Below are positions 22,055 through 42,106 of a stretch of DNA of 64,000 nt, one piece after another. The stretch is taken from IMG/VR virus record IMGVR_UViG_3300025986_000001, positions 32,001 through 96,000 of that record. One strand, given 5' to 3'. The first letter of the stretch is position 1; each line of letters begins with the position of its first letter. This DNA comes from a virus (lineage: Duplodnaviria > Caudoviricetes). The position numbers were made by a program, and so were the translations under genes. The notes under the pieces are model-generated. The model ran no database searches and was not told the origin of the DNA. It saw only the letters and a list, made by a program, of their open reading frames with translations.

Positions 22055-22120
22055 TCTCCGTCGCCCGTGTGACGGTGGCGACCAGCCGGGTGGACCCCCG
22101 GCCGGTACCATCACTCACGC
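22055..22120 (-). ncRNA. Intergenic structured element, copy 1 (diverged)
   Basis: cgtg..ggtggc..hairpin..accatcac..cacg. Confidence 0.7.
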
Positions 22121-22411
22121 GTTCAACGCGGTAACCGCCGCGGCCGCTTCGGCCTTGCAGCCGTGGTCGCTGACCGGATCCCAGAAACCCAGCCGGCAGT
22201 CACCCACCGTCCACAACCCCGGCTCGGATTGCAGGTACGTGTAGCGGAACTCGATGCCATTCAGCTCCCACGCCCGTCGCTTGGCGTCACGCTCGATGTC
22301 GTGGTCACTCTCCGGGACCCACCGGCCGTCGCCGGGGTGGTCGAAGCCGACCGTCCACAGGCGGTCCTCGCCAGCACAGCGGCGCACGTAGAAGCCGTGG
22401 AACTCGGGCAT
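22115..22411 (-). CDS. Protein with internal duplication (LWTVG...W.P.SDH twice)
   Basis: Two copies of the motif. Confidence 0.7.
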   Translation of the reverse strand: MPEFHGFYVRRCAGEDRLWTVGFDHPGDGRWVPESDHDIERDAKRRAWELNGIEFRYTYLQSEPGLWTVGDCRLGFWDPVSDHGCKAEAAAAVTALNA

Positions 22412-22413
22412 GA

Positions 22414-22788
22414 TCAGCTGGCCCCCGTCTGGTCCTGGAAGAAGTCGTGCGCCTGGAATGCCAGGTAGGTGCCGTCGTCGCGGTAACTGCCCAGCGGCCC
22501 CTCGTAGTCGTAGGGGTGGTTGCCGGCCCGCATGGACAACCCGAATCCGTGCGACTCGCTGCGCCAGCCCAGTTCGGGGTCGTCGTAGCTGAGCGCCAGG
22601 CACTGCCCGACGCTTTCCGGGTGGTAGTGCCGCAGCACCGGGAAGAATCGCCGGATGAACGGCTCGATCAGCTCCTGGGACTGCTCGAAGAGCACAGCGT
22701 GGTCACCGTTGTCGCCCTTGTGCCGGTGGCTGCTGCTCCTGAACTGCTCCACCACCCGGCCGATGTAGTGGTTGCTCGGCTCATCCAT
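22414..22788 (-). CDS. Hypothetical protein
   Basis: Downstream of promoter and repeat. Confidence 0.65.
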   Translation of the reverse strand: MDEPSNHYIGRVVEQFRSSSHRHKGDNGDHAVLFEQSQELIEPFIRRFFPVLRHYHPESVGQCLALSYDDPELGWRSESHGFGLSMRAGNHPYDYEGPLGSYRDDGTYLAFQAHDFFQDQTGAS

Positions 22789-22804
22789 GGGGATGTTCTC
22801 GCTC

Positions 22805-22874
22805 TCTCCGGTGCTCGACTCGTGCGCCGGCGGCAGCAACCGGGAACCCCCGGGCATTCCCGTCGCGCGCACGG
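22805..22874 (-). ncRNA. Intergenic structured element, copy 2
   Basis: cgtgcgccggcggc..cccgtcgcgcgcacgg. Confidence 0.7.
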
Positions 22875-22881
22875 TTTCGGC

Positions 22882-22910
22882 AGCGTAACAGCGAGTATGC
22901 GACGCGTCAA
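22882..22910 (-). promoter_or_regulatory. Primary-sigma promoter TTGACG-17bp-TACGCT
   Basis: -35 at 22910-22905, -10 at 22887-22882. Confidence 0.75.
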
Positions 22911-22918
22911 TCTAGGAT

Positions 22919-22963
22919 AGACACGTAGGGGGCCAGGATTAGGTCCTGGCCCCCTACGTGTCT
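22919..22963. terminator. 20-bp inverted repeat terminator
   Basis: agacacgtagggggccagga / tcctggccccctacgtgtct. Confidence 0.8.
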
Positions 22964-22977
22964 GTGCCAACAGTAAA

Positions 22978-23142
22978 TCAGTAGTCGGGATCTCCGGGCC
23001 GCGCCTGATGCCAGCCGCGGTCGATCGGATCGCCCCGTCGCCGGGCGCGCCAGTCCCCGAACAGCGTCCCCGCCACGGCGCCGGACCACATCAGCAGGCC
23101 CATCGCGCTGCCCCACAACAGGTTCGCGATCACCTGTGTCAC
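22978..23142 (-). CDS. 54-aa membrane peptide, not in ORF track
   Basis: VTQVIANLLWGSAMGLLMWSGAVAGTLFGDWRARRR. Confidence 0.5.
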   Translation of the reverse strand: MTQVIANLLWGSAMGLLMWSGAVAGTLFGDWRARRRGDPIDRGWHQARPGDPDY

Positions 23143-23143
23143 G

Positions 23144-23545
23144 CTAGCCGATCGCGTCCCGGACCGCCCGGGGCAGCGGGTCCAGCCAGATGTGCCGGTT
23201 GTGGTTCAGCCGGCGGTGCCCCTGGTGCGAGATCGGTTCCTGGTGATGCTCGTGCGAGACCACTTTGAACCCGGAACACAGCGCCGGCACGATCCCCGAT
23301 CCGTCCCACGAGCCGTTGTCGGCGACCCAGCGGATCCGATGCACCTTGTCCATGATCGTGTCTAGCAGGCTGGAGCCGCGCAACACCCGCACCGTCCAGA
23401 TGTCGGCGATCTGCTCGTCGTAGAAGCCGCCCAGGTAGACGGCGATCGACGCGCCTCCGGCCTCCGGCCGGACCCACGCGGCCGCGGACCCGTAGTCGAG
23501 AACCCGGATCCAGTCACTGCTGCCCGGACTCCACCGCCCGCTCAT
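23144..23545 (-). CDS. Hypothetical protein
   Basis: ATGA overlap. Confidence 0.6.
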   Translation of the reverse strand: MSGRWSPGSSDWIRVLDYGSAAAWVRPEAGGASIAVYLGGFYDEQIADIWTVRVLRGSSLLDTIMDKVHRIRWVADNGSWDGSGIVPALCSGFKVVSHEHHQEPISHQGHRRLNHNRHIWLDPLPRAVRDAIG

Positions 23546-23757
23546 CGGGCGTTCAGTTTCGCCAGGACCTGCTGGGCGCTCAGCGCCCGCACGTAGTACT
23601 CACGCACCGGTGCGACGCAGTTGTTGACGTAGCGCACCCAGACGATGCCGGTGTCGGAGAAGGAATGCTCGGCCGGCGGCTCGACCACCACGGCGAAGAC
23701 GAACGCCGAGCCCATCTGGACCTCAACGAACGTGCCGGCATCGGGAAGCCCACTCAT
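23542..23757 (-). CDS. Hypothetical protein
   Basis: MSGLPDAG start. Confidence 0.55.
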   Translation of the reverse strand: MSGLPDAGTFVEVQMGSAFVFAVVVEPPAEHSFSDTGIVWVRYVNNCVAPVREYYVRALSAQQVLAKLNAR

Positions 23758-23789
23758 CGGTTGCTCACCTGTGACCCTTTCTAGCACTT

Positions 23790-24086
23790 TTACCCGATAC
23801 CGCACGGACCGATAAACCCATCCTGCAATCGGGCCGCAGCCGCATCGTCGCGCGCCGCGGACAACTCGTCACCGTCGGCCTCGTCGAGCAGCATGTGGAC
23901 CATCTGGTCGCAGGGCGGCCGCTCGACGCCACGGACCAGGTACCACGACCACACCAGGGCCGGGTCCTGGAAGAAGTCGCCGGCCTGCACGTCGGCGGCG
24001 ATCACCGGATTGTCGAAGCCGATGACGTTCAACCCCTGCTCGGGGTGGAACCGCGCGCAGTCGTCGTCAGCATGATGGGTGCTCAT
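23790..24086 (-). CDS. Hypothetical protein
   Basis: Coupled start. Confidence 0.55.
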   Translation of the reverse strand: MSTHHADDDCARFHPEQGLNVIGFDNPVIAADVQAGDFFQDPALVWSWYLVRGVERPPCDQMVHMLLDEADGDELSAARDDAAAARLQDGFIGPCGIG

Positions 24087-24634
24087 CGGCTGCCCACCCG
24101 CCCGTCCCACTCGATGTCGGCGGCCGTGAACTGCTCGGCCCACTTGCGCACCCCGGCCGTGGTGGGTTCCGGGTCGTAATTCTTCTCGAAATCGTCGGCC
24201 CACCACTCGTTACGGTCCAGGTCGTAAGGGTCGGCGAGGATCAGGTACTCGATCTGCTGCTCGACGACCTGCGCCACGGTGTCACCGGTGACCTCCACGC
24301 CCTCGGCGATGCCGTACCAGGAGTACGTGACCACCGCCCAGGTGCCGTCCGGCAGCACCTGCATGAACCGCCGGCCGTACGCCTCGGTCACCTGCACGTC
24401 GCCGCCGCAGGTGCCGTGCGGTTGCGCACCGACCGGCGCCACCTCCCGCCACCGGCCGTCGGCCAGCGTGACCGCTGGGTGCGCGCTCAACTGCGTCGAC
24501 TCCGCCGGTCGCTCATCGGCGAACCAGCGGCCCCGGCCGCCGTCGGCCAGCGTGACCGCGTGGATAATGCTGCCCGCCTCGACTGTGCCGTAGAAGACCT
24601 CGGCCTTCGGGTCGGTGATTACCCAGGTATCCAT
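24083..24634 (-). CDS. Hypothetical protein
   Basis: Repeat and RBS upstream. Confidence 0.7.
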   Translation of the reverse strand: MDTWVITDPKAEVFYGTVEAGSIIHAVTLADGGRGRWFADERPAESTQLSAHPAVTLADGRWREVAPVGAQPHGTCGGDVQVTEAYGRRFMQVLPDGTWAVVTYSWYGIAEGVEVTGDTVAQVVEQQIEYLILADPYDLDRNEWWADDFEKNYDPEPTTAGVRKWAEQFTAADIEWDGRVGSR

Positions 24635-24646
24635 GTCCCATCCTTC

Positions 24647-24715
24647 TCTCCGTACGCTCCGTGCGCCGGTGGCTGCCCGCCCGGCCGAGCCGGGCGGGCA
24701 CCATCACGCTCACGG
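24647..24715 (-). ncRNA. Intergenic structured element, copy 3
   Basis: Consensus match. Confidence 0.9.
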
Positions 24716-24717
24716 CG

Positions 24718-25056
24718 TCAGAAGATGTGCACCTTCTCGACTTTGCGCAGGTCCAGACGTAGGTAGCCGCCGTCAGCCGCGGATGTCTCCCAATCCACGG
24801 TTTCGCCGTGGATCGCGCCCAGCCCGACACCACGCACCCTGATCAGATCGCCCTCACCGGTACCGGGCTCGTCGGCGCGGTCCAGCAGCTCCACCACCCA
24901 GCCGCCCTGGGCGGCCTCATGCAGGATCTCCAGCGCCGCCTCGTCGGCCTCCGGCTGAATCAGCACCGTGTTGATGTCGACCTCACTGATGCCGGCGTTC
25001 TCCAGCAGCCGGTTCATCAGGTGCCCGGCGTCCGTCCCGAAACTCATGTACTGCAT
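24718..25056 (-). CDS. Acidic hypothetical protein
   Basis: Flanked by two repeats. Confidence 0.75.
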   Translation of the reverse strand: MQYMSFGTDAGHLMNRLLENAGISEVDINTVLIQPEADEAALEILHEAAQGGWVVELLDRADEPGTGEGDLIRVRGVGLGAIHGETVDWETSAADGGYLRLDLRKVEKVHIF

Positions 25057-25072
25057 GATCTTTTCTCCCTCA

Positions 25073-25146
25073 TCTCCGTGCGCCGCACTCGTGCGCCGGC
25101 GGCCACGACCGAAGAGTGCCTCTTCGGTCGCACCGTCACGCTCACG
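25073..25146 (-). ncRNA. Intergenic structured element, copy 4
   Basis: Compensatory tcgtg/cacga and ggcgg/ccgtc. Confidence 0.9.
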
Positions 25147-25399
25147 AACGATGCTGCGCCAGTATCTGTCTGCCCAGCCTGGTCGGCTCGCACAGCCGGC
25201 TGGGCGGCACCCGCGACCAGCCGCTGACGTCGACCAGCCGGACGAGCTGCTTGGTGCGCAACAACTGCACCGCCATACTGACGTCCGGGCTGCCGGGCTG
25301 CAGCTTCTTGAACTTCCCCCGGGTGTGCAGGATCTTTCCCGCGGCCACCTCGCGCAGCAACTGCAGCTCCTCGGGTGTCAGTTCCCATTCGTCCGGCAT
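25142..25399 (-). CDS. Hypothetical protein
   Basis: MPDEWEL; stop inside the repeat. Confidence 0.6.
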   Translation of the reverse strand: MPDEWELTPEELQLLREVAAGKILHTRGKFKKLQPGSPDVSMAVQLLRTKQLVRLVDVSGWSRVPPSRLCEPTRLGRQILAQHRS

Positions 25400-25409
25400 G
25401 TCCCCCCCC

Positions 25410-25652
25410 TCAGTGGTTGCAGACGTGCTGGCGATAGCGGGGCGCACCCGACGGGATGCCGGACGCGGCGTCGCCGTCATCGGCAACGCCGTACAGCGCC
25501 AGCACGAACTCACCGACGGGAATGTCCAGCGGATCCCCGCGCAGCACCAGCTCGCCATCGTCGCACGGCAGCGGGTCGATCCGGATCGGATTCCCGTCGA
25601 GCTCGTACACCAGAACGGACGGTTGTCCGCAGGTTACGCAGGTATCACTCAT
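25410..25652 (-). CDS. Small Cys protein
   Basis: CVTCG...HVC. Confidence 0.6.
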   Translation of the reverse strand: MSDTCVTCGQPSVLVYELDGNPIRIDPLPCDDGELVLRGDPLDIPVGEFVLALYGVADDGDAASGIPSGAPRYRQHVCNH

Positions 25653-25939
25653 CGGTCACCCCCGGCACTTTCCAGCGCCTGCGATTCACTGATCTCGGTG
25701 ATGTGTCGCGGAGACGCCCAGCCGCCGCCGGTCAGGAACAGCCACCTGCCCCAGCCGGCGTAGCGCGTGCCGATCTCGTACTTCGAGCGCAAGAGGTCCG
25801 TGCCCGTGATCCGGGCGACGTACGGCGGTTTCGGCTTGCGATAGGCGTTCGCCGACCAGGTCTTCGACTCGTCCACGATCACGTAGGTGCCCACGGCCAG
25901 CATCGGGCTGCCGTCACTCATCGTCTCCATGCTCACCAC
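25649..25939 (-). CDS. Hypothetical protein
   Basis: Coupled. Confidence 0.6.
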   Translation of the reverse strand: MVSMETMSDGSPMLAVGTYVIVDESKTWSANAYRKPKPPYVARITGTDLLRSKYEIGTRYAGWGRWLFLTGGGWASPRHITEISESQALESAGGDR

Positions 25940-26253
25940 GCCCGCCCGCGACCCATGATTCCCAGGACGATCATTCGCGCGTCGACCGTGGAGACGCCCA
26001 GGTGTTCGTTGACCTGATCGACGCGCACCTGCGCCTTGGTGTAAGCCGGGCCGAAGAACGCGGCCACCTCCCGGCGCGCCGACTCCGGGAACCGGTAGAA
26101 ACCGTTGTCGCCTTCGACGTTCATCACCGGCAGGTAGTTCTCGCCGTACAGCATCGTCGGATCGACATGCAGCACGACCCGGTTGTCGCCGTTGAACTGC
26201 GACAGCAGCCCGACGGCGGTCAGCAGCTCAACGGGGATCTGCTCGTTCATCAC
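25933..26253 (-). CDS. Hypothetical protein
   Basis: After repeat. Confidence 0.7.
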   Translation of the reverse strand: MMNEQIPVELLTAVGLLSQFNGDNRVVLHVDPTMLYGENYLPVMNVEGDNGFYRFPESARREVAAFFGPAYTKAQVRVDQVNEHLGVSTVDARMIVLGIMGRGRAW

Positions 26254-26262
26254 TCATCCTCA

Positions 26263-26332
26263 TCTCCGCACGCACCGTGCGCCGGCGGCCACCGGCCGGA
26301 GCTCGCCCCGGCCGGCACCGTCACGCTCACGG
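26263..26332 (-). ncRNA. Intergenic structured element, copy 5
   Basis: Consensus match. Confidence 0.9.
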
Positions 26333-26333
26333 T

Positions 26334-26669
26334 TCAGTCGCCCCAGTTGATCGACCCGAGGGCCGTGATCTTCGCGATGTCGGCGTGGACGGTCACCGTC
26401 AGCTCCGATCCCGCGATTGCGCGATGTTTCTCTGGATCCTGCTGGACGGCCAGCAGCGCGCACCGGACACACTCCATCGCGTAGAAGCGCCCCATCCGGC
26501 GCTGGGAATTGTCCCCCAGATTCGGCGTGTCGTCGCTGCACTTGCCGGGCCATCCGCCGGTGTGCTCGGCGAACATCGACTCCAGCAGCCCGCGCTCCAG
26601 CGCCTGCGCCACCGTCATCGTCCACGCGATCCTCGCCCCGACGCCAGGGTGATCGACGTGCGCGCTCAT
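26334..26669 (-). CDS. Hypothetical protein
   Basis: Stop abuts repeat. Confidence 0.65.
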   Translation of the reverse strand: MSAHVDHPGVGARIAWTMTVAQALERGLLESMFAEHTGGWPGKCSDDTPNLGDNSQRRMGRFYAMECVRCALLAVQQDPEKHRAIAGSELTVTVHADIAKITALGSINWGD

Positions 26670-27010
26670 CGCCGCACCACCGCGTACGCAACGCCAGGGT
26701 CATGCACCTGGTCGTCCCAGGCGTGATCACCCACGCCGGGCGTCGCTCCGACGATCACGCCGGTGCCGTCGGAGTTCAGCGGCCAGTCCTCGTGCGGGTT
26801 GCCGAACTCGCACTCGGTGGCCGCGTACTCCAGGTAGTCGACCGTCTCGGTGGCTTCCCCGATCGTCCACTCCGGGTGCCGCTCCTCCTGCTGCCAGCGG
26901 GCCAGCTTCAGCCATGCCCACGCCTGCCGGGCGTCGCCGAAGCTCGGTTCGTCGCCGCGCACAGCCGGCTGCGGCCGGTCGTTGGGGTAGACCAAGGCGA
27001 AGAACGTCAC
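26666..27010 (-). CDS. Acidic hypothetical protein
   Basis: GTGA overlap. Confidence 0.6.
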   Translation of the reverse strand: MTFFALVYPNDRPQPAVRGDEPSFGDARQAWAWLKLARWQQEERHPEWTIGEATETVDYLEYAATECEFGNPHEDWPLNSDGTGVIVGATPGVGDHAWDDQVHDPGVAYAVVRR

Positions 27011-27480
27011 TTGCTGATCCCCCTCAACGCGATCCACTCGGCCGCCGTCGCGTTCAACGCGTACGCATGCTTCCAGACCTCGGCCTCGCCGGGCGTGCCT
27101 ACGGAGTCCGGCCGTGCGGCCAGCATCCTGCGCGCCCAGTCCAGGTCTTTGTCGTCGGGTTCGGTGAGCACCAGGCTGTAGCAGATCTGCGCCCAGTCGA
27201 TGCTGTCCTCGTCGAGGGTGAAGTTCTGGAAGAGGCCGTAGACCGCGGCGGCGGCGCTGCCGGGACGGTTGTGCCAGTCGTCGGCCAGGATGTGCAGCAG
27301 CCGCAGCGCCAGCCGTTCCGGGCCGTTATGGACCGCGTAGTGCCGCGCCATCTTGATGTACTCGGCGTCGTTGTTGATCCACAGCCCGATCTGCATCGTC
27401 GCCGCGTTGTTGTAGCCGTCGAAATCGCCGGTCAGCTCCAGCGGCACACCGTCACAGCCGCCGCGAAGATTGATCTCCAT
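27007..27480 (-). CDS. Hypothetical protein (GYNNAATMQIGLWINND motif)
   Basis: After repeat. Confidence 0.7.
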   Translation of the reverse strand: MEINLRGGCDGVPLELTGDFDGYNNAATMQIGLWINNDAEYIKMARHYAVHNGPERLALRLLHILADDWHNRPGSAAAAVYGLFQNFTLDEDSIDWAQICYSLVLTEPDDKDLDWARRMLAARPDSVGTPGEAEVWKHAYALNATAAEWIALRGISK

Positions 27481-27490
27481 GGTTTTGCCT

Positions 27491-27560
27491 TTCCCCGCAC
27501 GCACCGTGCGCCGGCGGCCACCGGCCGGGGCTCGCCCCGGCCGGCACCGTCACGCTCACG
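27491..27560 (-). ncRNA. Intergenic structured element, copy 6
   Basis: Consensus match. Confidence 0.9.
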
Positions 27561-27822
27561 CCGCCACTTGCACCATCACAAGATCTTTCTCGTGATACAG
27601 CAGGAAGGTAGGCCCTTCGACGGGGGACATCACCTCCACTCGGACTCCCCCGGCGTAACTGGCCGGCTTCGCGGGCTCCTCGACCAGGAATGGGTAGCGC
27701 CACAGGCGAATCTCGTCATTCTCGATCCTTCCCCACACCAGCATTCCGTCGATCAGATTCCTTGCCACCACCGCGATCAGCGGCGGTAGCCGATCGCCGG
27801 CCTTCTCGACCTGATCCATCAC
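27556..27822 (-). CDS. Hypothetical protein
   Basis: Stop inside repeat. Confidence 0.6.
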   Translation of the reverse strand: MMDQVEKAGDRLPPLIAVVARNLIDGMLVWGRIENDEIRLWRYPFLVEEPAKPASYAGGVRVEVMSPVEGPTFLLYHEKDLVMVQVAA

Positions 27823-28148
27823 GCCGCCCCATCGATGCGGTAGTAGGCGAACTCCTCGTGCCCGTCCGGGAACGTGACGGTCACCTTCGGGTGCGCGAAG
27901 TAGTTCTCGTCGTACTCGCGGGCACCCTCCACCCGGAAGGTGCAGTCGGCCAGCCTGCCGTTCGGGCCGATCGCCTGAACCTGATCGATCTCGATCTCGA
28001 CCCCGCCGTAGCTGCGCTGCTCCAGCAGCGTGGCCAGGCGGACTACCGTGTCGGTGTCCGGGATGACACGGCCGTCGTAGCGGACCACCATGACCAGTTC
28101 GGTCGGCCCGTCGACCGCCGGGTCGTACTCCCGCGCCGTCGCCTTCAC
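27819..28148 (-). CDS. Hypothetical protein
   Basis: GAGGAG RBS, GTG start. Confidence 0.65.
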   Translation of the reverse strand: MKATAREYDPAVDGPTELVMVVRYDGRVIPDTDTVVRLATLLEQRSYGGVEIEIDQVQAIGPNGRLADCTFRVEGAREYDENYFAHPKVTVTFPDGHEEFAYYRIDGAA

Positions 28149-28160
28149 GATCTCCTCATC

Positions 28161-28227
28161 TCTCCGTACGCCTCGTGCGCCGGTGGCCGGCCGCCGGGCG
28201 AACCCGGCGGCCACCATCACGCTCACG
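28161..28227 (-). ncRNA. Intergenic structured element, copy 7 (UUCG loop)
   Basis: Consensus match. Confidence 0.9.
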
Positions 28228-28800: not shown

Positions 28801-28817
28801 GCCCAGCCCCCTTTGTC

Positions 28818-29308: not shown

Positions 29309-29311
29309 AAC

Positions 29312-35272: not shown

Positions 35273-35276
35273 GGGG

Positions 35277-35540: not shown

Positions 35541-35557
35541 GATCTCTCCCTCACAGA

Positions 35558-36034: not shown

Positions 36035-36045
36035 GGGTGATCCTC

Positions 36046-36118
36046 TCTCCGGGCGCACCGTGCGCCGGTGGCGGACGACGCAGGACATCGACCTGCGTCG
36101 TCACCATCATCCGCGCGG
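36046..36118 (-). ncRNA. Intergenic structured element, copy 20
   Basis: Consensus match. Confidence 0.9.
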
Positions 36119-36119
36119 C

Positions 36120-36425
36120 TCAGCCCAGGCCTTCACGGGTCAGCCGTTCGACGCCCGGCCCAGCCGTCCAGCAGGTACCCGGCCCGGCCTGGTGGCTTTC
36201 CCGGATGTACACCACATCGGCGCGCGGGTCGGTCAGGAATCCCCGGGCGATCTCGCGCGCCTTGGCCAGTGCCTTGGCCTGTTCTTCGTCGCCGCCGTCG
36301 GCCGGTGTCGTATCGGCGTAGACATCCATGTCGCCGAACATCCCGCCTTCGGGCAGGTAGCGGCCTTGTTTGTCCACCGGATGAATGTGATAGCCGATCC
36401 GGTACGGCTTACTGACGTAGTTCAT
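36120..36425 (-). CDS. Hypothetical protein
   Basis: MNYVSKPY. Confidence 0.7.
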   Translation of the reverse strand: MNYVSKPYRIGYHIHPVDKQGRYLPEGGMFGDMDVYADTTPADGGDEEQAKALAKAREIARGFLTDPRADVVYIRESHQAGPGTCWTAGPGVERLTREGLG

Positions 36426-36658
36426 CCCGCCGGTTCCTCGTCGCGGTCCTCGCTCAGAATCGCCCGGATCGCCTCCAGGTCCGGGGTGTCCGTGCAGATC
36501 AACTCCCGGATGGCGCGCACCTGTGGCACCGTGACGTTGAGCCACTTCGAGCTTGCTTCGTCACCGGTGATCTTCAGAGTCAGCGCGTGCCGCTCCGGAT
36601 GACCGGCCAGCGCCCGCTGAATCTCGCCTCGGACATAGGTCTCGTGATACTCATCCAT
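36422..36658 (-). CDS. Hypothetical protein
   Basis: After repeat. Confidence 0.7.
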   Translation of the reverse strand: MDEYHETYVRGEIQRALAGHPERHALTLKITGDEASSKWLNVTVPQVRAIRELICTDTPDLEAIRAILSEDRDEEPAG

Positions 36659-36671
36659 GCCGAACTCTCCC

Positions 36672-36744
36672 TTCCCGTACGCACCGTGCGCCGGTGGCGA
36701 GCGGCGCCGGCCATCGACCGGCGTCGCCACCATCATCCGCGCGG
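36672..36744 (-). ncRNA. Intergenic structured element, copy 21
   Basis: Consensus match. Confidence 0.9.
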
Positions 36745-36745
36745 C

Positions 36746-36949
36746 TCAGTCCTCGTCGTCATCCTCGGCGACGGCTGCCCGCCAGAGCGCACAGACCTCT
36801 TCCACGACCTCTTGCTGCCGCAGGCTCAGATCCTCCGTGTGCCCGGCGTAGAGCACCTCCGCAAGGGTGTGTAGCGCGGTCTCGATGCTGGCTCCGCTCA
36901 TCTGTGCAGCGAGCGAGCCTTCGGGGAAGTCCTTGATTACGTAAGCCAT
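36746..36949 (-). CDS. Small acidic protein
   Basis: Single-gene unit. Confidence 0.7.
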   Translation of the reverse strand: MAYVIKDFPEGSLAAQMSGASIETALHTLAEVLYAGHTEDLSLRQQEVVEEVCALWRAAVAEDDDED

Positions 36950-36962
36950 GTCGCCGATCCCT

Positions 36963-37031
36963 TTCCCGAACGCACCGTGCGCCGGTGGCCAGCGGCCGGG
37001 CTCACACCCGGCCGGACCATCATCCGCGCGG
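36963..37031 (-). ncRNA. Intergenic structured element, copy 22 (GUGA loop)
   Basis: Consensus match. Confidence 0.9.
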
Positions 37032-37214
37032 TGTCCAGGCGGCAGGCGCGAACCTACCGCGAGACAGCCAGTCATCCAGGTCGCCGAACGCCTCGATCAC
37101 CTCATCACCGGCGTCCTTCACGTGCGTGATCGCGGTGACATCGGCGATAGCGATCACGTGTTCCAGCTCGGCAAGCGCCGCGCGCAGCCGGGCCAGGGCG
37201 GCATCAGGATCCAT
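37020..37214 (-). CDS. Small protein (MDPDAAL...LDDWLSRGRFAPAAW)
   Basis: Stop inside repeat. Confidence 0.75.
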   Translation of the reverse strand: MDPDAALARLRAALAELEHVIAIADVTAITHVKDAGDEVIEAFGDLDDWLSRGRFAPAAWTPRG

Positions 37215-37244
37215 GATCTTCTCTCTTCCTGCTCGTGCGCCGGA

Positions 37245-37541
37245 CTACGCCAGCGCTTCTCGGGCGATGTTCTGCTGTCGGGTGGTGGTTTTGCTGTACC
37301 GGGCTTCCGGCAGCCGGACACTCCCATCGACCAGTACCCACGCAATCGGCGTGGCGTAGGAGTACACCGTGTAGACGACCTCCCGCCGCGCCACGTCGGC
37401 CTCGTATCCGTCCCGATCGGCATTGCTCAGCTGATGATCGCTGGCCAGTCCACCACCGGCCCGGCCGGACATGCTGGCGGACAGGAACGCCCGCCGGTCG
37501 CGGATAGCGTCGACGATGTCGTCGCGGTTCATGCTCGGCAT
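37245..37541 (-). CDS. Hypothetical protein (YSYATPIAW...YSKTTTRQQ)
   Basis: After repeat. Confidence 0.75.
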   Translation of the reverse strand: MPSMNRDDIVDAIRDRRAFLSASMSGRAGGGLASDHQLSNADRDGYEADVARREVVYTVYSYATPIAWVLVDGSVRLPEARYSKTTTRQQNIAREALA

Positions 37542-37557
37542 ATTGATCTTTCTCGTC

Positions 37558-37626
37558 TCTCCGTACGCACCGTGCGCCGGTGGCCACCGGCCGGACCGAA
37601 GTCCGGCCGGACCATCACACCCACGG
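37558..37626 (-). ncRNA. Intergenic structured element, copy 23 (cUUCGg loop)
   Basis: Minus strand ccggac-ttcg-gtccgg. Confidence 0.9.
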
Positions 37627-37674
37627 TCAGCAGTCAGCGCCCAGCTTGCGATAGACCTGACCATCAGCTCAGGG

Positions 37675-38058
37675 TTACCGGCCAGATTCGGGCACACCCG
37701 CACCCTTGATCTCAGGGCAGTAATGCTTGGTCCGGCTTTTGCCGTCGACCACGCCCAGCGAATACCACTCATCGACTCGGACCGTCGCGCTTCCGCGCAC
37801 CTCCGACCGCACCTCGGCCACCTCCGGCGGGTAATCGGCCAGGATCACCCCGCGCGCATCGGCGAACGCGTCCACCTGGCCGATGTAGTACGCGGCGGCC
37901 TCGCGTGGCTGCCCCAGCCAGACCACCTGGCTGTTACCGTCCATGATCCGAGATCCGGCCCCGAGATCGGTCCCGAACTCGGCCTCGGCCACGTAGTTGT
38001 TGCTCAACGCGCGTGCATACGCGCTGACGGTGCGGACGTGCTCCTTGGTAATACGCAT
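37675..38058 (-). CDS. Hypothetical protein, paralog of 39143..39490
   Basis: VWLGQPREAAAYYIGQ. Confidence 0.75.
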   Translation of the reverse strand: MRITKEHVRTVSAYARALSNNYVAEAEFGTDLGAGSRIMDGNSQVVWLGQPREAAAYYIGQVDAFADARGVILADYPPEVAEVRSEVRGSATVRVDEWYSLGVVDGKSRTKHYCPEIKGAGVPESGR

Positions 38059-38071
38059 TCGAGTACCCCTT

Positions 38072-38147
38072 TCTCCGGCGCTCCGTGCGCCGATGGCATC
38101 AACCACGACCTATCCGGCCGGCCGCGGTCGCACCATCATCCGCGCGG
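38072..38147 (-). ncRNA. Intergenic structured element, copy 24
   Basis: gatgg/ccatc variant. Confidence 0.85.
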
Positions 38148-38546
38148 TCGCACCACCAGCACTGCCCCGAACCGGCCGACCAGCGGATGCACCGGCTCCG
38201 TACCCGGCCACATCAGCGGCCACGTCGCGCTCAGCGCGGCCTCGCCGACCCCGTCCAGGGTGTGATACTGCCGTGCGGTGAAATCCACGTTCACCGGCTC
38301 GCCGTCGACCACCACCCGTGTCCACACGTGATAGTCGGCCCACGGATGCTCGGCTTCGGTCGCCCGGACCACGCAGGCCGCCCCGCCGCGCTCGCCGACG
38401 TACGCGGCGAACCGGGCTCCCGCCTGATCACAAGCCCACGTGTCGGTGGCATCGTCCTCGTCCGCGCTGACATCCGGATAGCGGCGCCAGACATCGGCCA
38501 TCGGCTCCGCGCTCGCGAACCCGTCGATCAGCTCCTGCAGTTCCAT
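38136..38546 (-). CDS. Hypothetical protein with C...H...DFTARQY motifs (papain-like fold possible)
   Basis: WACDQ, HVWT, VDFTARQY. Confidence 0.65.
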   Translation of the reverse strand: MELQELIDGFASAEPMADVWRRYPDVSADEDDATDTWACDQAGARFAAYVGERGGAACVVRATEAEHPWADYHVWTRVVVDGEPVNVDFTARQYHTLDGVGEAALSATWPLMWPGTEPVHPLVGRFGAVLVVRPRG

Positions 38547-38559
38547 CCTCAACTACCTC

Positions 38560-38625
38560 TCTCGTCGCGTTGTGCGCCGGTGGCCGACGGCCGGGAGTGT
38601 GCCCGGCCGGACCATCATGCGAACA
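38560..38625 (-). ncRNA. Intergenic structured element, copy 25
   Basis: Compensatory ttgt/acaa. Confidence 0.85.
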
Positions 38626-38887
38626 AAGCATCCTGTTGCGGGTGAACAACCTGCGATTGGTAGACGACCACCGAGACGACGTGTGGCGTTTCATCATCGC
38701 CGACCAGCGTGTAAGTGGCCGTCCAGAAGTGGCCACCTCCGGTCATGTCACAGTGCTCGACCTCGATGGCAGGATTCCTGCATGCGCGCAGGAATCCTGC
38801 CTCCTGGCCACCGTCGGAGAAGGTGACCACCACCGGCTCCCCGATCATGCTGGCGTAACGGTCACTGCTGCTTTCGACGTCACTCAT
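38615..38887 (-). CDS. Hypothetical protein
   Basis: Single-gene unit. Confidence 0.65.
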   Translation of the reverse strand: MSDVESSSDRYASMIGEPVVVTFSDGGQEAGFLRACRNPAIEVEHCDMTGGGHFWTATYTLVGDDETPHVVSVVVYQSQVVHPQQDALFA

Positions 38888-38902
38888 GCCCGTAACCCGC
38901 TA

Positions 38903-38975
38903 TCTCCGTCGCACCGTGCGCCGGTGGCACCGACCCTGGCCCGTTCCGGCCAGGGTCGCACCATCATCCGAACGG
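38903..38975 (-). ncRNA. Intergenic structured element, copy 26
   Basis: Consensus match. Confidence 0.9.
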
Positions 38976-39143
38976 CCCGATACCGAACACGTCGGCCACC
39001 CGCTTGATCAGCTCGTAGCACTGGCGATCGGTCTCTCGCGCTGCCGACGCGTCGGCTACGTGGACCTCCGCCCACCCGAACACCGTCGCCAGGTCCTCGC
39101 GCAGCTGCGGCGTCACCTCTACCACACGGTTGCTTCCGTCCAT
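38964..39143 (-). CDS. Small hypothetical protein
   Basis: TGATG coupling. Confidence 0.6.
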   Translation of the reverse strand: MDGSNRVVEVTPQLREDLATVFGWAEVHVADASAARETDRQCYELIKRVADVFGIGPFG

Positions 39144-39490
39144 CAGCGTGCGCCGCCTCGGTATGCGCCGGTGCTCTTGCCCCGCGCGTACCACTTGGCG
39201 ATGGACGCCTTCCGGCCGATGTCCAGGTTGATTTCGTCCCGGGCCTCCTGCACGTGGGACGGCAGGGGAACGTCGCCCAGGCCCTTCACGTCGCGGTACC
39301 CCTCGATCTGCCCGAGGTAGTAGGCCGTCGCCTCGCGCGGCTGACCCAGCCAGACCAGCTGCTCATCGCCGTCGATGACCCGCGCGCCGTGCCCGAGGTC
39401 CGCGCCGACATTGCAGACGCTGATCCCCCCGTCGCTGATCTCGTTGGCGTAGCGGCTCATGTCCTGCGCGGTCGTGCCTGTGATGCGCAT
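39143..39490 (-). CDS. Hypothetical protein, paralog of 37675..38058
   Basis: VWLGQPREATAYYLGQ. Confidence 0.75.
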   Translation of the reverse strand: MRITGTTAQDMSRYANEISDGGISVCNVGADLGHGARVIDGDEQLVWLGQPREATAYYLGQIEGYRDVKGLGDVPLPSHVQEARDEINLDIGRKASIAKWYARGKSTGAYRGGAR

Positions 39491-39501
39491 CGAAATACCT
39501 C

Positions 39502-39577
39502 TCTCCGTGCCCGGCCTCGTGCCGTGCTCCGGCGGCAACCCGCCCGGCCTGCCGGGCGAGCACCGTCACGAGCACGG
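39502..39577 (-). ncRNA. Intergenic structured element, copy 27
   Basis: Compensatory ccgtgctc/gagcacgg. Confidence 0.85.
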
Positions 39578-39991
39578 TCAGCCCTCATCTCCGCGCAAGT
39601 CGAGCGCGGCCATGCTCAGCTCATCGGAGTTGAGGTACGCCCACTCGGCCACAGCGGCCGAGAACAGCCAGCCGTCGACCGGTTCGCTCGCGCCCATGGT
39701 GGCCTGATACGCCTCGGCTTCAGCGGTTAGGTATCCACACAGCACGGCAAGCGCCTCGCGGATGGTCTCGCCCGGTTCGAGGCGCGTGGCGCGCGGCGAC
39801 AGCGCCACGTCGTTGCCGTAATACTCCCCACCGGGGAAGTCGACGAAGTACGACACGCGCGCCTTGTCACCGTCGTACCCGGTGATCCAGGCACTGAGAC
39901 GGCCACCGGTCGCACGTTCCGGATCGATGGCGATCGAGGGGATCAGGCGCGGGCCGATGCTCAGCGGCGCGGTCAGAACGTAGCTGGTCAT
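39578..39991 (-). CDS. Hypothetical protein
   Basis: Single-gene unit. Confidence 0.75.
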   Translation of the reverse strand: MTSYVLTAPLSIGPRLIPSIAIDPERATGGRLSAWITGYDGDKARVSYFVDFPGGEYYGNDVALSPRATRLEPGETIREALAVLCGYLTAEAEAYQATMGASEPVDGWLFSAAVAEWAYLNSDELSMAALDLRGDEG

Positions 39992-40000
39992 GATTGCCTC

Positions 40001-40076
40001 TCTCCGGTCGGCGGTAGCGCCGTATGCCGGTGGCCAGCGGCCGGAATACTGCCCGGCCGGACCATCACACATACGG
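40001..40076 (-). ncRNA. Intergenic structured element, copy 28
   Basis: Compensatory ccgtatg/catacgg. Confidence 0.85.
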
Positions 40077-40082
40077 AACCGT

Positions 40083-40175
40083 TCAGATTTCCGCATCCCA
40101 GCCGTACAGCCATCCCTCACGGCGCACCCGACGTGCCCAGGACGCGAGGTTGTTGACGAGAATGTTGAGGAACAT
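40083..40175 (-). CDS. 30-aa microprotein MFLNILVNNLASWARRVRREGWLYGWDAEI
   Basis: Fills the interval between two repeats, GAAGGG RBS. Confidence 0.6.
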   Translation of the reverse strand: MFLNILVNNLASWARRVRREGWLYGWDAEI

Positions 40176-40190
40176 ATCTTTACCCTTCTA

Positions 40191-40255
40191 TCTCCGGCCG
40201 TGCGCCGGTGGCTCCCGGCCGGAGCATGCCCCGGCCGGAACCATCACACACACGG
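40191..40255 (-). ncRNA. Intergenic structured element, copy 29
   Basis: Consensus match. Confidence 0.9.
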
Positions 40256-40528
40256 TCAGGACAACCGGGCCGCCGACGGTGACCAGGCCGACAGCAGATG
40301 ATCGGCCGCATCGGCGCGCGTCTCGTAACCGACGGTCCACGCCTGCCTCCCCTCGTCACCGGCCAGGAGGTACCCCCACCCGTCGACCCGCTGTTCGGCC
40401 CGTGCCACGTGTCCGGCCAGCCGACCGTCGTACTTGACTGGCGCGGCCGTACGCGTCGTGCCGTCCGGGTTCGCCACCTCGACCGCCCGCCCGTAACTGA
40501 TCTTGTCGTGGTTCCATAGGAAACGCAT
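40256..40528 (-). CDS. Hypothetical protein
   Basis: GAGGGA RBS. Confidence 0.65.
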   Translation of the reverse strand: MRFLWNHDKISYGRAVEVANPDGTTRTAAPVKYDGRLAGHVARAEQRVDGWGYLLAGDEGRQAWTVGYETRADAADHLLSAWSPSAARLS

Positions 40529-40537
40529 GGCAATCCC

Positions 40538-40783
40538 TCAATTCCCGGTGGGAGCGCTCGGATCGTCAGCCCACCACAAACACCGTGTGTCGGCGTAGTA
40601 GCGCGTGCCGCCATCCCATGACACGGTGACGCCGTACGTGCAGTGCGCGGCGCCGGGAGTGACGACCCCGCGCTTACCATCGCAGTCGATCACCGCGCGC
40701 CCTTCGTTGGTCGTGTTGCCCTGGTCAACCCCGAACAGGAAATGCCCGCCGTGATCGGGCTTGTCGCCGAAGCTGTGCGCCAT
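40538..40783 (-). CDS. Hypothetical protein
   Basis: After repeat. Confidence 0.65.
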   Translation of the reverse strand: MAHSFGDKPDHGGHFLFGVDQGNTTNEGRAVIDCDGKRGVVTPGAAHCTYGVTVSWDGGTRYYADTRCLWWADDPSAPTGN

Positions 40784-40796
40784 GGCGCACCCGCCT

Positions 40797-40866
40797 TTCC
40801 CCGCACGCACCGTGCGCCGGTGGCCACCGGCCGGGCAAGCGCCCGGCCGGACCATCACACACACGG
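40797..40866 (-). ncRNA. Intergenic structured element, copy 30
   Basis: Consensus match. Confidence 0.9.
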
Positions 40867-40868
40867 TC

Positions 40869-41135
40869 TCACTGCACGTCCGAGTAGTCCTCGACGTCGT
40901 GTCGGTGCTCGACCCGCCCCTCGCGGTAGACGATTGTGCCCGGCTCGTCCAGCTCCTGCACCCGAATCGGGTGCATCCACACGTCCCGATGCGCGTTGTT
41001 CTCGCGCGTCGTGATCTCGTCTCGCAGGGCGCGCCGCGCCGCGATCAGCGGCGAGACACACTCAACAGGCACCCGAACGTGCCAGACGCCGGAACCGTTG
41101 GCCCAAGTGGTCACTCGCGGGTCATCCATGGTCAT
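40869..41135 (-). CDS. Hypothetical protein
   Basis: Single-gene unit. Confidence 0.7.
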   Translation of the reverse strand: MTMDDPRVTTWANGSGVWHVRVPVECVSPLIAARRALRDEITTRENNAHRDVWMHPIRVQELDEPGTIVYREGRVEHRHDVEDYSDVQ

Positions 41136-41142
41136 CCCTTCG

Positions 41143-41210
41143 CTCCGTACGCACCGTGCGCCGGTGGCCAGCGGCCGGAGCATGCTCCGGCCGGACCATC
41201 ACACACACGA
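41143..41210 (-). ncRNA. Intergenic structured element, copy 31
   Basis: Consensus match. Confidence 0.9.
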
Positions 41211-41603
41211 TCAGCGGTTGTCGATGTAACCCGGCCACGTTGGCGGGTGCGCCACGATCGTCAGCTCCCGGTGGTCGATCTTGCGTCGGCCGCACCGGCG
41301 GCACTCCAGCGGACGGCGGCTGTGCGCCTCGAACCCGGGCAGATCACACCGCCCGTACCCATCGGCGGGCCGGTCGTCGCCGCGCTCGTTCCAGTCCCAG
41401 CCGTGCGCCTCAGCGACCCTTTCCCGGCGCGCCTCGATGCCGTACCCCTTGAGCGAGGTGACATCAACGCCGTTGAGATCCAGCAACCTGTCGATCATGG
41501 TGCGGGTGCAGACACCCAAGATGTCGAACGCCCGCATGGTGGTCGTTGCCTGCGCGATGCGGTCATTGATCCCCGCCACGTGCTCATCGGTGATGTGACC
41601 CAT
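41211..41603 (-). CDS. Hypothetical protein, C-terminal Cys motif
   Basis: Single-gene unit. Confidence 0.7.
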   Translation of the reverse strand: MGHITDEHVAGINDRIAQATTTMRAFDILGVCTRTMIDRLLDLNGVDVTSLKGYGIEARRERVAEAHGWDWNERGDDRPADGYGRCDLPGFEAHSRRPLECRRCGRRKIDHRELTIVAHPPTWPGYIDNR

Positions 41604-41622
41604 GTAAATTCCTCGCTTTCCC

Positions 41623-41696
41623 TCTCCGATGCCCGTGCATCGGTGGCATCGACAGCGGCCGATTCGGCCGGCCGCTGTCGCACCATCCATGCGCGG
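41623..41696 (-). ncRNA. Intergenic structured element, copy 32
   Basis: Consensus match. Confidence 0.8.
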
Positions 41697-41703
41697 CGAT
41701 GGA

Positions 41704-42027
41704 TCAGACCTGCTCGACGATTACCCCGATCAAGTCCAGGTCCGAGCGGACCAGGGTGTACGCCTCATCCTCGGCGTACCAACCGGCCTCATGCGCGCCA
41801 TCGTGACGCAGGTGCTCGGCGTCACGAGCCTCGATCAACCCGGTGTAGGTGGTGTAAGCGCAGGTGCCGCAAGACAGCGGCACGCGGGTAGTGGCGACCG
41901 CGCGGGGCACCCGGCACTCTTCGTCGGTGTTGCCGTAGCGCAACCGGTCGAAGAGCTCGGCCAGGATGTCAGCGCGCACCGCGCCGGTCGATCCCTTGGC
42001 ATCGGCCAGCAGTCCATCGTTAACCAT
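41704..42027 (-). CDS. Hypothetical protein, C2H2-like motif
   Basis: CGTC...HLRHDGAH. Confidence 0.7.
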   Translation of the reverse strand: MVNDGLLADAKGSTGAVRADILAELFDRLRYGNTDEECRVPRAVATTRVPLSCGTCAYTTYTGLIEARDAEHLRHDGAHEAGWYAEDEAYTLVRSDLDLIGVIVEQV

Positions 42028-42042
42028 GTCGATCCCTGTCTC

Positions 42043-42106
42043 TCTCCGGCCTGTGTGCCGGTGGCCAGCGGCCGGAGCATGCTCCGGCCGGACCATCACA
42101 CCCACA
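42043..42106 (-). ncRNA. Intergenic structured element, copy 33
   Basis: Compensatory ctgtg/cacag. Confidence 0.9.

Follow-up and report, generated by a model that had tools for sequence, protein, structure and literature searches.

One RNA hairpin element fills the gaps between the small early genes of an uncultured phage

The uncultured phage described here comes from high-GC bacteria and has a genome of 130,757 bp. The window, a stretch of 64,000 nucleotides of that genome, contains small early genes whose intergenic gaps are filled by 33 copies of one RNA hairpin. This array (22035..42125, minus strand) comprises ~57 small genes of no known family, called by third-position GC, together with the element copies. 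Transcription runs leftwards, and a low-GC region at about 42.1 to 44.2 kb lies upstream of the array, with GC dropping to 0.59 at 42 to 44 kb of the window. Searches with ten of the largest array proteins give zero matches in Pfam and two weak matches only in PHROG, both to families with no assigned function. A tyrosine recombinase gene is located 8 kb from the array. Among the phage-encoded genes, no RNase III gene was found and no sigma factor was detected; a search of the phage for a T7-type polymerase gave no match, the control genomes likewise giving no positive.

The 15-mer GCCACCGGCGCACGG occurs 50 times in the window with ≤3 mismatches, compared to 15.5 ± 4.3 times in shuffled sequences (0/100 shuffles reach 50), and all 17 of its exact copies are minus-strand copies located at 24.6 to 41.2 kb. 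A covariance model trained on 32 window copies finds 33 copies in the array, 31 of them at 57 to 94 bits and the others at 35.8 and 30.2 bits, which confirms the 33 minus-strand copies of the original prediction. Numbered from the upstream end, and all on the minus strand, these include copies 3 (41124..41227, 85.1 bits), 4 (40780..40883, 86.0 bits), 5 (40168..40272, 74.7 bits), 8 (38884..38992, 61.7 bits), 10 (38053..38164, 58.1 bits), 12 (36945..37048, 79.0 bits), 13 (36654..36761, 63.5 bits), 14 (36028..36135, 67.1 bits), 16 (35182..35289, 65.9 bits), 18 (34346..34451, 76.7 bits), 19 (33702..33806, 80.4 bits), 20 (33146..33250, 85.4 bits), 22 (31965..32072, 62.8 bits), 23 (31136..31238, 87.1 bits), 24 (30801..30903, 89.0 bits), 26 (29222..29325, 84.8 bits), 27 (28143..28245, 87.5 bits), 28 (27474..27578, 85.0 bits), 29 (26245..26349, 93.1 bits), 30 (25059..25164, 59.3 bits), 31 (24629..24732, 89.8 bits), and 32 (22790..22891, 57.9 bits). 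The best match is copy 11 (37540..37643, 94.4 bits), which has a UUCG loop and a fold of -43.2 kcal/mol (z -3.0); copy 17 (34787..34891, 93.3 bits) folds at -49.2 kcal/mol (z -3.9), and copy 15 (35540..35645, 30.2 bits, E 5e-4) is weak and diverged. A remnant that lacks the hairpin and keeps just the purine tract and the middle strand (CCGGCGCACGA) precedes the gene at 37214-37020 (37215..37245, minus strand).

The genome holds 37 copies in total: the 33 of the array, 3 further downstream in the window, and 1 after dnaE. The downstream three, also on the minus strand, are a copy with the transcription direction of the array (13529..13633, 50.8 bits) and two possible diverged copies (18350..18450, 22.7 bits, E 0.018; 13179..13277, 26.4 bits, E 0.003). 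The copy found by the covariance model after the dnaE stop codon (L076 8822-8924, outside the window) is the sole one on the plus strand, and the whole-genome scan places 37/37 copies in the sense orientation to the local genes. Seven metagenomic contigs of diverged phages contribute 54 further copies, and the large alignment, relatives included, contains 88.

The 5' half of the element is built from region 1 (CCGUGnGCGU) and GAUGGU, followed by a variable apical hairpin of 7 to 13 bp that often carries a UNCG or GNRA loop on top. The 3' half contains GCCACC, region 2 (CCGGCGCACGG), and region 3 (UGCGUACGG), after which come a purine-rich ribosome-binding tract and the start codon, the latter 21 to 30 nt 3' of CACGG in most copies. 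Counted from the first C of CCGUG, upstream stop codons fall between -23 and +9 in 80/83 copies, with peaks at -4/-3, +3, and +8/+9, and UGA stops within region 1 and GAUGG serve 27/83 upstream genes. This placement between the stop codon and the ribosome-binding site agrees with the original prediction and is tighter than had been stated. Gaps bearing the element measure 66 to 94 nt in 58/71 cases (median, 82), while element-free junctions are mostly 4-nt overlaps or gaps of <50 nt. The element thus occupies the entire gap from the upstream stop codon to the next ribosome-binding site.

In the first of two folds, fold I, regions 1 and 2 pair, so that the apical hairpin grows into a helix of about 25 bp with interruptions. 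In the window copies (n = 32), 86% of pair cells are paired, compared to 32 to 56% with slid partners, and both sides are changed in 17/24 pairs. The covariation check, extended to 88 copies, gives 93.8% paired cells against 28 to 57% with slid partners and changes on both sides in 19/24 pairs, a count that overstates the number of independent events since copies within the family share descent; 0/500 shuffles equal any of these measures. The compensatory changes listed beforehand are all present. GAUGG/GCCAC becomes GACGG/GCCGC in six copies, and CCGUG/CACGG is replaced by CUGUG/CACAG in copy 1 (42021..42124, minus strand as for all those following, 76.1 bits), CCGUAUG/CAUACGG in copy 6 (39990..40093, 74.1 bits), CCGUGCUC/GAGCACGG in copy 7 (39492..39594, 69.8 bits), UUGU/ACAA in copy 9 (38540..38643, 73.2 bits), and UCGUG/CACGA in copy 25 (29644..29747, 71.7 bits). 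Copy 2 (41603..41715, 35.8 bits) is a GAUGC variant with both pairing partners changed to match, copy 21 (32776..32881, 57.3 bits) is the CCGCCGCGCGA variant, and copy 33 (22035..22139, 70.3 bits) is the CCGUCACACGG variant with both partners compensated.

The strand preference claimed for wobble pairs and loops is likewise confirmed. Two positions carry a fixed U.G pair in 82 to 83 of the 88 copies, where the antisense strand would have A.C mismatches; UNCG or GNRA apical loops occur in 36/88 copies on the sense strand compared to 1/88 on the antisense strand; and the antisense fold is less stable than the sense fold in 67/88 copies (p 1e-10). At three positions a G-C pair is invariant in 88 copies while neighboring pairs covary, and an A-opposite-C mismatch is retained in nearly all copies. 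Covariation, strand-specific G.U pairs, and the UNCG/GNRA loops support the element as a structured feature of the sense mRNA.

Folding predictions support a second, alternative conformation of nearly equal energy, fold II, which is a new finding. Here, region 3, farther downstream, replaces region 1 as the partner of the conserved middle strand CCGGCGCA, and the result is a 3' hairpin that starts right after the first hairpin and ends directly before the purine tract. The hairpin has the same starting C in 82/88 copies, followed by AGA or AGG in 63/88. The energy of fold I minus fold II is -1.8 ± 2.5 kcal/mol (88 copies), with the folds within 2 kcal/mol of each other or fold II preferred in 44/88 copies, and the strengths of the two folds correlate across copies (r 0.45). 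Variants of region 2 pair better with their own region 3 than with the consensus in 16/18 copies, and cognate partners surpass noncognate ones in 5000/5000 permutations. Tested column by column, fold II shows no significant covariation (78.1% paired versus 77.7% in shuffles); as region 2 is nearly invariant, the case for fold II comes from per-copy folding and about 18 variant copies. The switch originally proposed, pairing of the 5' CCGUG with UACGG next to the ribosome-binding site, shows no cognate advantage, with 2081/3000 permutations as good. Nor do the predictions point to a switch that unmasks the ribosome-binding site: start-region accessibility is 0.61 when the 5' strand is free and 0.62 when it is blocked. 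The original interpretation therefore stands as to a structured sense-RNA element running from the stop codon to the ribosome-binding site but not as to the CCGUG/UACGG switch, and the roles it proposes in RNA processing, stabilization, or translation control are putative.

Genes shared with the contigs of the relatives are 65 to 79% identical, whereas identity between contigs is 93% for GAUGGU and 90% for GCCACC plus region 2. Identity within contigs equals that between contigs, which indicates that selection, rather than local homogenization, maintains the consensus. Related phages carry the same gene families between the repeats, yet in different orders and neighborhoods, and the apical sequence is weakly linked to the neighboring genes (0.72 and 0.68, compared to 0.66 for random pairs).

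A search of Rfam with the element gives no match, and in line with the original prediction no attC or promoter-early stem-loop (PeSL) definition fits. The SAS/ESAS repeats share the actinobacterial phage setting, a conserved box just before start codons that is preceded by an imperfect inverted repeat, and many co-oriented copies. The SAS motif itself is absent here (1 match with 2 mismatches versus 2.0 expected); the present repeat, in contrast to SAS/ESAS, runs from the stop codon to the start region and shows abundant compensatory changes, while the ESAS authors reported scant evidence of a hairpin in the mRNA. REP/BIME repeats and CUUCGG-type intercistronic hairpins stabilize upstream mRNA and block 3' exonucleases. 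Like the element, they are transcribed, highly repeated, stable, and intergenic, with extra-stable tetraloops, but they are not tied to a stop codon and the next start and have no conserved alternative fold.

The stop codon abuts or lies within region 1 with a precision that a plain barrier hairpin would not need, which favors a mechanism in which the terminating ribosome opens region 1, fold II forms, and the small subunit or whole ribosome reinitiates at the next gene, which would couple translation over a long range with no overlap of stop and start codons. The stacked hairpins would reduce the path between the stop codon and the binding tract, about 80 nt long, to about 12 nt. Consistent with this, the element is found at junctions without the usual 4-nt stop/start overlap, fold II begins one base past the first hairpin and ends at the purine tract, and the two folds are balanced in energy and correlated in strength. 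Coupling models based on RNA unfolding and on ribosome scanning are both established, and rpmI-rplT coupling is known over +52 nt (PMC12548453). However, coupling efficiency usually drops steeply with distance, and structure directly after the stop codon is reported to reduce it (PMC12548453). Blocking region 1 leaves the predicted start accessibility unchanged, so the unfolding model gains nothing, and the strong purine tract before every downstream gene makes independent initiation possible; such reinitiation is rather unlikely. Improbable to a higher degree is an operator, in which a sequence-specific RNA-binding protein or nuclease of phage or host reads the invariant GAUGGU/GCCACC helix and the A.C mismatch and shuts off the whole early gene set or marks it for decay at a set time of infection. 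The three invariant G-C pairs amid covarying neighbors, the preserved mismatch, and the selected core, constant across phages with diverged genes, would fit such a reader. Against it, no candidate protein was identified, no complementary RNA was found elsewhere in the genome, and the conservation is partly due to the two partners of region 2 and the UGA stops in region 1 and GAUGG.

The 27-nt conserved box about 25 nt before start codons, always co-oriented with the genes, resembles a phage promoter, and the element could accordingly be a cassette whose hairpin ends one transcript while the 3' half serves as a promoter for a modified host polymerase, as in conserved Streptomyces phage early promoters or the PeSLs of T4-type phages. 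PeSLs are likewise short modules bordering small nonessential genes with no assigned function in a plastic early region, and recombination between copies reshuffles genes among related phages (PMC2839356). They combine a strong sigma-70 promoter with a terminator hairpin, whereas a sigma-70-like promoter or a hairpin with a U-run is found in 0 elements, and the phage lacks a detected sigma factor. Covariation of regions 1 and 2 and compensation between regions 2 and 3 place all three on one RNA, read through whole; a transcription start within the box would preclude this, and the cassette is very unlikely. Scarcely credible is a single-stranded-DNA recombination site of an integron-like system, or a selfish repeat without benefit to the phage. 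Like attC sites, the element is an imperfect palindrome, variable at its center and conserved at its ends, that follows each co-oriented small gene, the stop codon often lying in the first box; gene order differs among relatives, and a tyrosine recombinase is encoded nearby. This recombinase, however, scores 50.8 bits against the integron integrase model (cutoff, 265) and is a plain XerC/D-like enzyme, and RYYYAAC/GTTRRRY core sites are absent. The features are those of RNA rather than folded single-stranded DNA: UNCG/GNRA loops, a fixed distance to the start codon, and a 3' hairpin by the ribosome-binding tract serve no purpose in DNA recombination. One copy follows dnaE, away from any array, and the apical sequence is only weakly linked to adjoining genes.

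The RNase III signals of T7 sit between cistrons as helices of about 25 bp that are broken by mismatches and bulges at fixed places, and RNase III has little sequence specificity. Like these signals (R0.3, R0.5, R1.1, and others in early and late mRNA), the element is a repeated interrupted hairpin of about two helical turns with fixed internal mismatches, located between cistrons just before the next ribosome-binding site. It differs in showing no sequence similarity, in its copy number (at least 33 versus about 10 in T7), in the stop codon inside the 5' strand, in the conserved competing 3' hairpin, and in a core far more conserved than RNase III requires. In RNase III signals, internal loops or mismatches direct single-strand cuts, leaving stabilizing 3' hairpins (PMC3867540); the T7 signals leave such hairpins once cut, whereas cleavage of the present element is putative.

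The best explanation, held with moderate confidence on the basis of sequence, is that the element punctuates, protects, or processes a polycistronic message and standardizes the start region of each gene. It would act in cis, bridging whole gaps along one long polycistronic early transcript. A ribosome terminating at the upstream stop codon would, judging from its known footprint, open region 1 and bring the junction into fold II. The stable hairpins may block exonucleases or be cleaved by a double-strand-specific enzyme, as in T7 early mRNA; the phage lacks RNase III, so any cleavage would need a host enzyme. RNase III, with its low specificity, does not account for GAUGGU and GCCACC-CCGGCGCACGG being so strictly conserved in diverged phages; this calls for the two pairing roles of region 2 or for a sequence-specific partner. 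Each gene or small group would have its 3' end protected and its 5' end capped by a hairpin, and would gain a start region always open independently of its neighbors, an insulating role that fits the equal accessibility in both states.

Repeated structured connectors between early phage genes are of a kind already known, and the element is a new RNA family of that kind. Incidentally, about 35 nearly identical repeats of 70 nt may supply homology for recombination, in keeping with the original idea of a homology anchor; this would account for the different orders in which shared gene families stand between the repeat copies of related phages.

The repeat is real: its 15-mer anchor occurs well above chance, and the true copies lie genome-wide on the gene-sense strand only. 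A covariance model trained on 32 aligned copies recovers all 33 copies of the original prediction between the small early genes at 22035-42125 (-), where they stand co-oriented among ~57 genes, and every base change quoted for their stems is present in the copies. Farther along the leftward transcription unit the model detects three more copies, one clear and two weak, and on the plus strand another one sits directly after the dnaE stop codon; this brings the genome to 37 copies, 37/37 oriented as the local genes. Searches of Rfam return no matching family, in agreement with the earlier statement that none of the known analogues fits the consensus: only tRNAs are reported at gathering thresholds, and at E values up to 5 the region from 33.0 to 42.2 kb gives three chance matches, none of them repeated at the elements. 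At 37215-37245 (-), ahead of the gene 37214-37020, lies a remnant in which the hairpin is missing and just the middle strand and purine tract are left; decay or recombination of a copy is its probable origin.

Fold I, formed by the 5' strand (CCGUGnGCGU) and the middle strand, is one long interrupted hairpin. The outer stem, (A)CCGUG/CACGG(U), measures about 6 bp. It is followed inward by a 1x1 mismatch, two pairs, a bulged G and U.G and G-C pairs, then by a conserved A opposite C, UGGU/GCCA and a 2-3-nt bulge. The hairpin is topped by a variable apical stem, 7-13 bp long. The lower stem comprises 14 modelled pairs, the outermost of which is often unpaired. Among 32 window copies, aligned independently with MAFFT, 86% of the pair cells are paired, compared to 32-56% with slid partners, and both sides are changed in 17/24 pairs. 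The main alignment of 88 copies from the window and its relatives, which was fitted to the model and is biased towards the structure, agrees with this picture, with 93.8% of pair cells paired compared to 28-57% after sliding and with double-sided changes in 19/24 pairs (208 cells). No shuffle reaches any of these measures.

The structure belongs to the mRNA-sense strand. U.G pairs are fixed at two positions (82/88 and 83/88 copies), and the sense fold is better than the antisense fold by a mean of 3.7 kcal/mol and more stable in 67/88 copies (p 1e-10). On the sense strand, 36/88 copies have a UNCG (17) or GNRA (19) apical loop, compared to 1/88 on the antisense strand. The assignment of the wobble pairs and stable loops to the mRNA-sense strand is thus borne out by the fixed U.G pairs and the loop counts. 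The fixed U.G pairs, the sense-strand stability, the loop bias and the co-orientation together rule out a binding site in double-stranded DNA and make a folded-DNA site unlikely, and the enrichment of UNCG and GNRA loops on this strand argues for an RNA rather than a single-stranded DNA site. The element is a structure of the sense RNA, set in its position and under selection.

Fold II would instead join the most conserved strand, CCGGCGCACGG, to the nine bases that follow it, UGCGUACGG, in an 8-bp hairpin ahead of the purine-rich ribosome-binding tract. In folds of the individual copies this 3' hairpin begins at the same C in 82/88, and AGA or AGG comes next in 63/88. Blocking the 5' strand costs only 1.8 +/- 2.5 kcal/mol in total energy relative to fold I, and 44/88 copies favor fold II or differ by <=2 kcal/mol. 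Over the copies, the energies contributed by the lower stem (-12.6) and by the 3' hairpin (-10.8) are correlated with each other (r 0.45). Middle-strand variants occur in 18 copies, 16 of which pair better with their own downstream partner than with the consensus partner; at 41603-41715, 22035-22139 and 32776-32881, for example, both partners are altered to match the middle strand. Cognate combinations surpass permuted ones in 5000/5000 trials for both pairings. Two things keep the column-wise covariation of fold II from being significant in the model-made alignment: the near-invariance of the middle strand and the misalignment of short with long partner forms. Thermodynamic predictions and the variant copies make fold II well supported, though short of proven. 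Its double duty gives a simple reason for the middle strand being the most conserved part of the element.

The switch originally proposed, in which the 5' CCGUG pairs with UACGG next to the ribosome-binding site, is not upheld, as this pairing is the weaker one and cognate partners fare no better in it than permuted ones. The predicted accessibility of the purine tract is 0.61 with the 5' strand free and 0.62 with it blocked, and that of the start codon is 0.59 and 0.58, respectively. An unmasking of the next start site by upstream translation is not supported, since both states are predicted to be equally accessible.

The position of the element relative to the flanking genes is nearly constant. 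Counted from the first C of CCGUG, the upstream frame ends between -23 and +9 in 80/83 scorable copies, consistent with the described placement at or over the previous stop codon. The stop codon lies at -4/-3, immediately before the stem, in 34 copies; the UGA within CCGUGA serves as the stop in 14 copies, and the UGA within GAUGAUGG does so in 13. The consensus, for example at 34860-34880 (-), reads UGA CCG UGA GCG UGA UGG, with three UGA codons in frame. Since upstream genes stop at any of the three, the element itself codes for the C-terminal residues of 27/83 upstream proteins. The start codon follows 21-30 nt past CACGG in most copies. Gaps with an element measure 66-94 nt in 58/71 cases, and gaps lacking one consist largely of 4-nt overlaps and short spacers. 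Judged by the stop and start positions and the gap lengths, the element is the entire spacer from the stop codon to the start region. The footprint of a ribosome reaches roughly 10 nt past the stop codon, so every ribosome terminating at these stops would have to melt the lower stem on its 5' side. GAUC is frequent 0-5 nt ahead of start codons at 22-42 kb (-), as in gagaucAUG and agaucgacAUG, and may extend the pairing with the 3' end of the 16S rRNA.

Relatives of the element were found in metagenomes. Scans of IMG/VR with two exact patterns give no match, and a scan of bacterial and archaeal genomes gives 73 single matches over unrelated phyla and no genome with multiple copies; these scattered matches are taken as chance, with no prophage relative among them. 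The first 50 kb of the genome of Saccharomonospora phage PIS 136 contain no copy. The metagenome scan yields seven contigs with 2-14 pattern matches each, and the covariance model adds 54 copies from them, in one orientation within each contig. With these, the family numbers about 90 copies, drawn from eight or more diverged genomes. Genes common to these contigs and the window show 65-79% DNA identity and a different order. Between contigs, GAUGGU is 93% identical and GCCACC with the middle strand 90%, compared to 28% for the flanks. Identity within a contig equals that between contigs, which indicates that local copy correction is not what maintains the consensus; homogenization of the copies within a genome has left no sign.

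The genes parted by the element are shuffled. Clustering of the proteins from all contigs gives 27 common families whose order and neighbors vary by contig. The element is present at most joints between these families, and the junction sequences show the same gene flanked by different genes across the repeat. Of the largest array proteins, ten match no Pfam family and give only two weak PHROG matches, to families of unknown function. The idea of the repeat as a homology anchor for cassette shuffling holds insofar as gene order and neighbors vary across the repeats; a clean pair of filled and empty sites was not found. On L145, a contig of a diverged relative with its elements oriented +, the gap between protein families F23 and F04 (~1609-1696) holds a GC-rich, hairpin-forming sequence that starts with UGACCG, ends with ACGGGAGG and lies below detection by the covariance model. 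The same gene pair is parted by a normal copy on the related contig L115. The L145 gap is probably a degenerate copy and was rejected as an empty site because of this copy inside it. The apical hairpin shows a weak association with the gene on either side. By analogy, the shuffled order would fit recombination between repeats, which has been demonstrated for the PeSLs of T4-type phages (PMC2839356).

The window covers bases 32001-96000 of a single virus record of 130,757 bp, classed as linear and ~93% complete, with a GC content of ~67%. The record encodes DnaE and DnaB and carries 30 tRNA genes, 29/30 of them in one leftward array (58821-63705 (-)) that covers most amino acids and encloses an HNH endonuclease gene (62290-62901). 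No close relative by DNA is found among GenBank phages, and the best match of DnaE, from Saccharomonospora phage PIS 136, shows 47% identity. We read the phage as an orphan with a high-GC Gram-positive host. A regulator with DUF5753 and HTH_31 (4506-5941 (-)) adjoins a DUF6879 protein, and a DUF6891 protein is encoded at 10934-11560; such families are characteristic of Streptomyces-like actinomycetes and hint at the host. The sole tyrosine recombinase of the window (49779-50867 (-)) is XerC/D-like by its best matches and lies ~1.4 kb from an isolated tRNA-Met (48285-48361 (+)), which points to a temperate phage whose attachment site would be tRNA-linked and close by. The protein at 46073-46555 (+) matches the riboflavin-intermediate N-glycosidase/NADAR family (TIGR02464, 78.9 bits), with a weaker match to a NADAR anti-phage model, and may by its sequence be a counter-defence gene. 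Third-position GC shows leftward transcription throughout from ~42.1 kb to base 1. Just upstream of the first element copy, a GC-poor stretch (0.59) with few convincing genes at 42100-44200 is likely the control region in which the leftward early transcript originates.

Several known systems resemble the element in part. An array of co-oriented cassettes, each followed by a site, is shared with integrons. However, the recombinase at 49779-50867 scores 50.8 bits on the integron integrase model TIGR02249, compared to a cut-off of 265, and the attC cores RYYYAAC and GTTRRRY are absent, the element ending in CCGUG and CACGG with no GTT core in its consensus. The integrase type and the missing core sites speak against an integron attC. 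We regard a DNA recombination site or selfish repeat as highly improbable. Only slightly less improbable is a promoter cassette of the PeSL type, which requires a strong sigma-70-like early promoter and the U-run of an intrinsic terminator. Here, a single promoter-like site is found in 15 kb, outside the elements (1.9 expected), and 0/6 terminator-like sites (4.8 expected) fall in an element, the hairpin of which is followed by GCCACC and not by a U-run. No sigma factor gene was found in the phage, and a search for a T7-type polymerase gave no match in the phage and no positive in its control genomes. The SAS of Cluster K phages is a 13-nt sequence, GGGATAGGAGCCC, ahead of start codons; its one match here, with two mismatches, lies in a tRNA gene (2.0 expected). 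The Cluster K ESAS, 17-bp imperfect inverted repeats without compensatory changes, differs from the element, in which 19/24 pairs are compensatory; the authors describing the ESAS saw little support for RNA hairpins (PMC3203893).

Three G-C pairs are invariant while neighboring pairs covary, pointing either to a sequence-specific partner or to the combined constraints of two pairings and embedded stops. An operator for a specific RNA-binding factor, which would account for the invariant pairs in the first way, is rather unlikely. A device handing ribosomes over from one gene to the next would suit the stop-to-start geometry and draws nothing from the predicted accessibilities; we regard it as a minor possibility. 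The RNase III signals of T7, interrupted double-stranded hairpins of ~20 bp or more between cistrons, are matched by the element, and its fixed mismatches and bulges repeat their architecture, although cleavage here is conjectural. No RNase III gene was found in the phage. Beyond structure, position and selection, we infer the mechanism, and we put at about even the chance that the element punctuates a long early message. The stable tetraloop-capped helix would then be a nuclease barrier or a double-strand cleavage site, and the 3' hairpin, placed right ahead of the purine tract, would serve as a cap for the 5' end of the segment that follows. A start region equally open in both states would insulate each gene from its neighbors. 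A ribosome-operated two-state joint, in which termination flips the helix into two stacked hairpins and leaves the ribosome beside the next start and the RNA poised for a cut, is a more speculative reading, which we also regard as a minor possibility.

Structured repeated connectors between early phage genes that double as shuffling points are already known from T7 and T4. The element family itself is new and without a catalogued match, and its stop-codon-embedded two-state build is likewise new. To our knowledge, the expression and reshuffling of long runs of small early genes in phages are little understood beyond T4 and T7. Many such genes are likely directed against the host or its defences. 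The family offers an unusually clean case, with a fixed stop-to-start geometry, two competing folds and many diverged copies, and adds an actinophage example with a clear RNA structure to a class resting on PeSL promoter-terminator cassettes and the unexplained SAS/ESAS motifs. If the two-state joint were true, it would be a standard natural connector by which a new gene is plugged into the early operon and expressed whatever its neighbors, and the same repeat would drive the shuffling of the cassettes. Should the element prove to be a context-independent connector or processing site, it would provide a ready-made part for operon building in actinobacteria.
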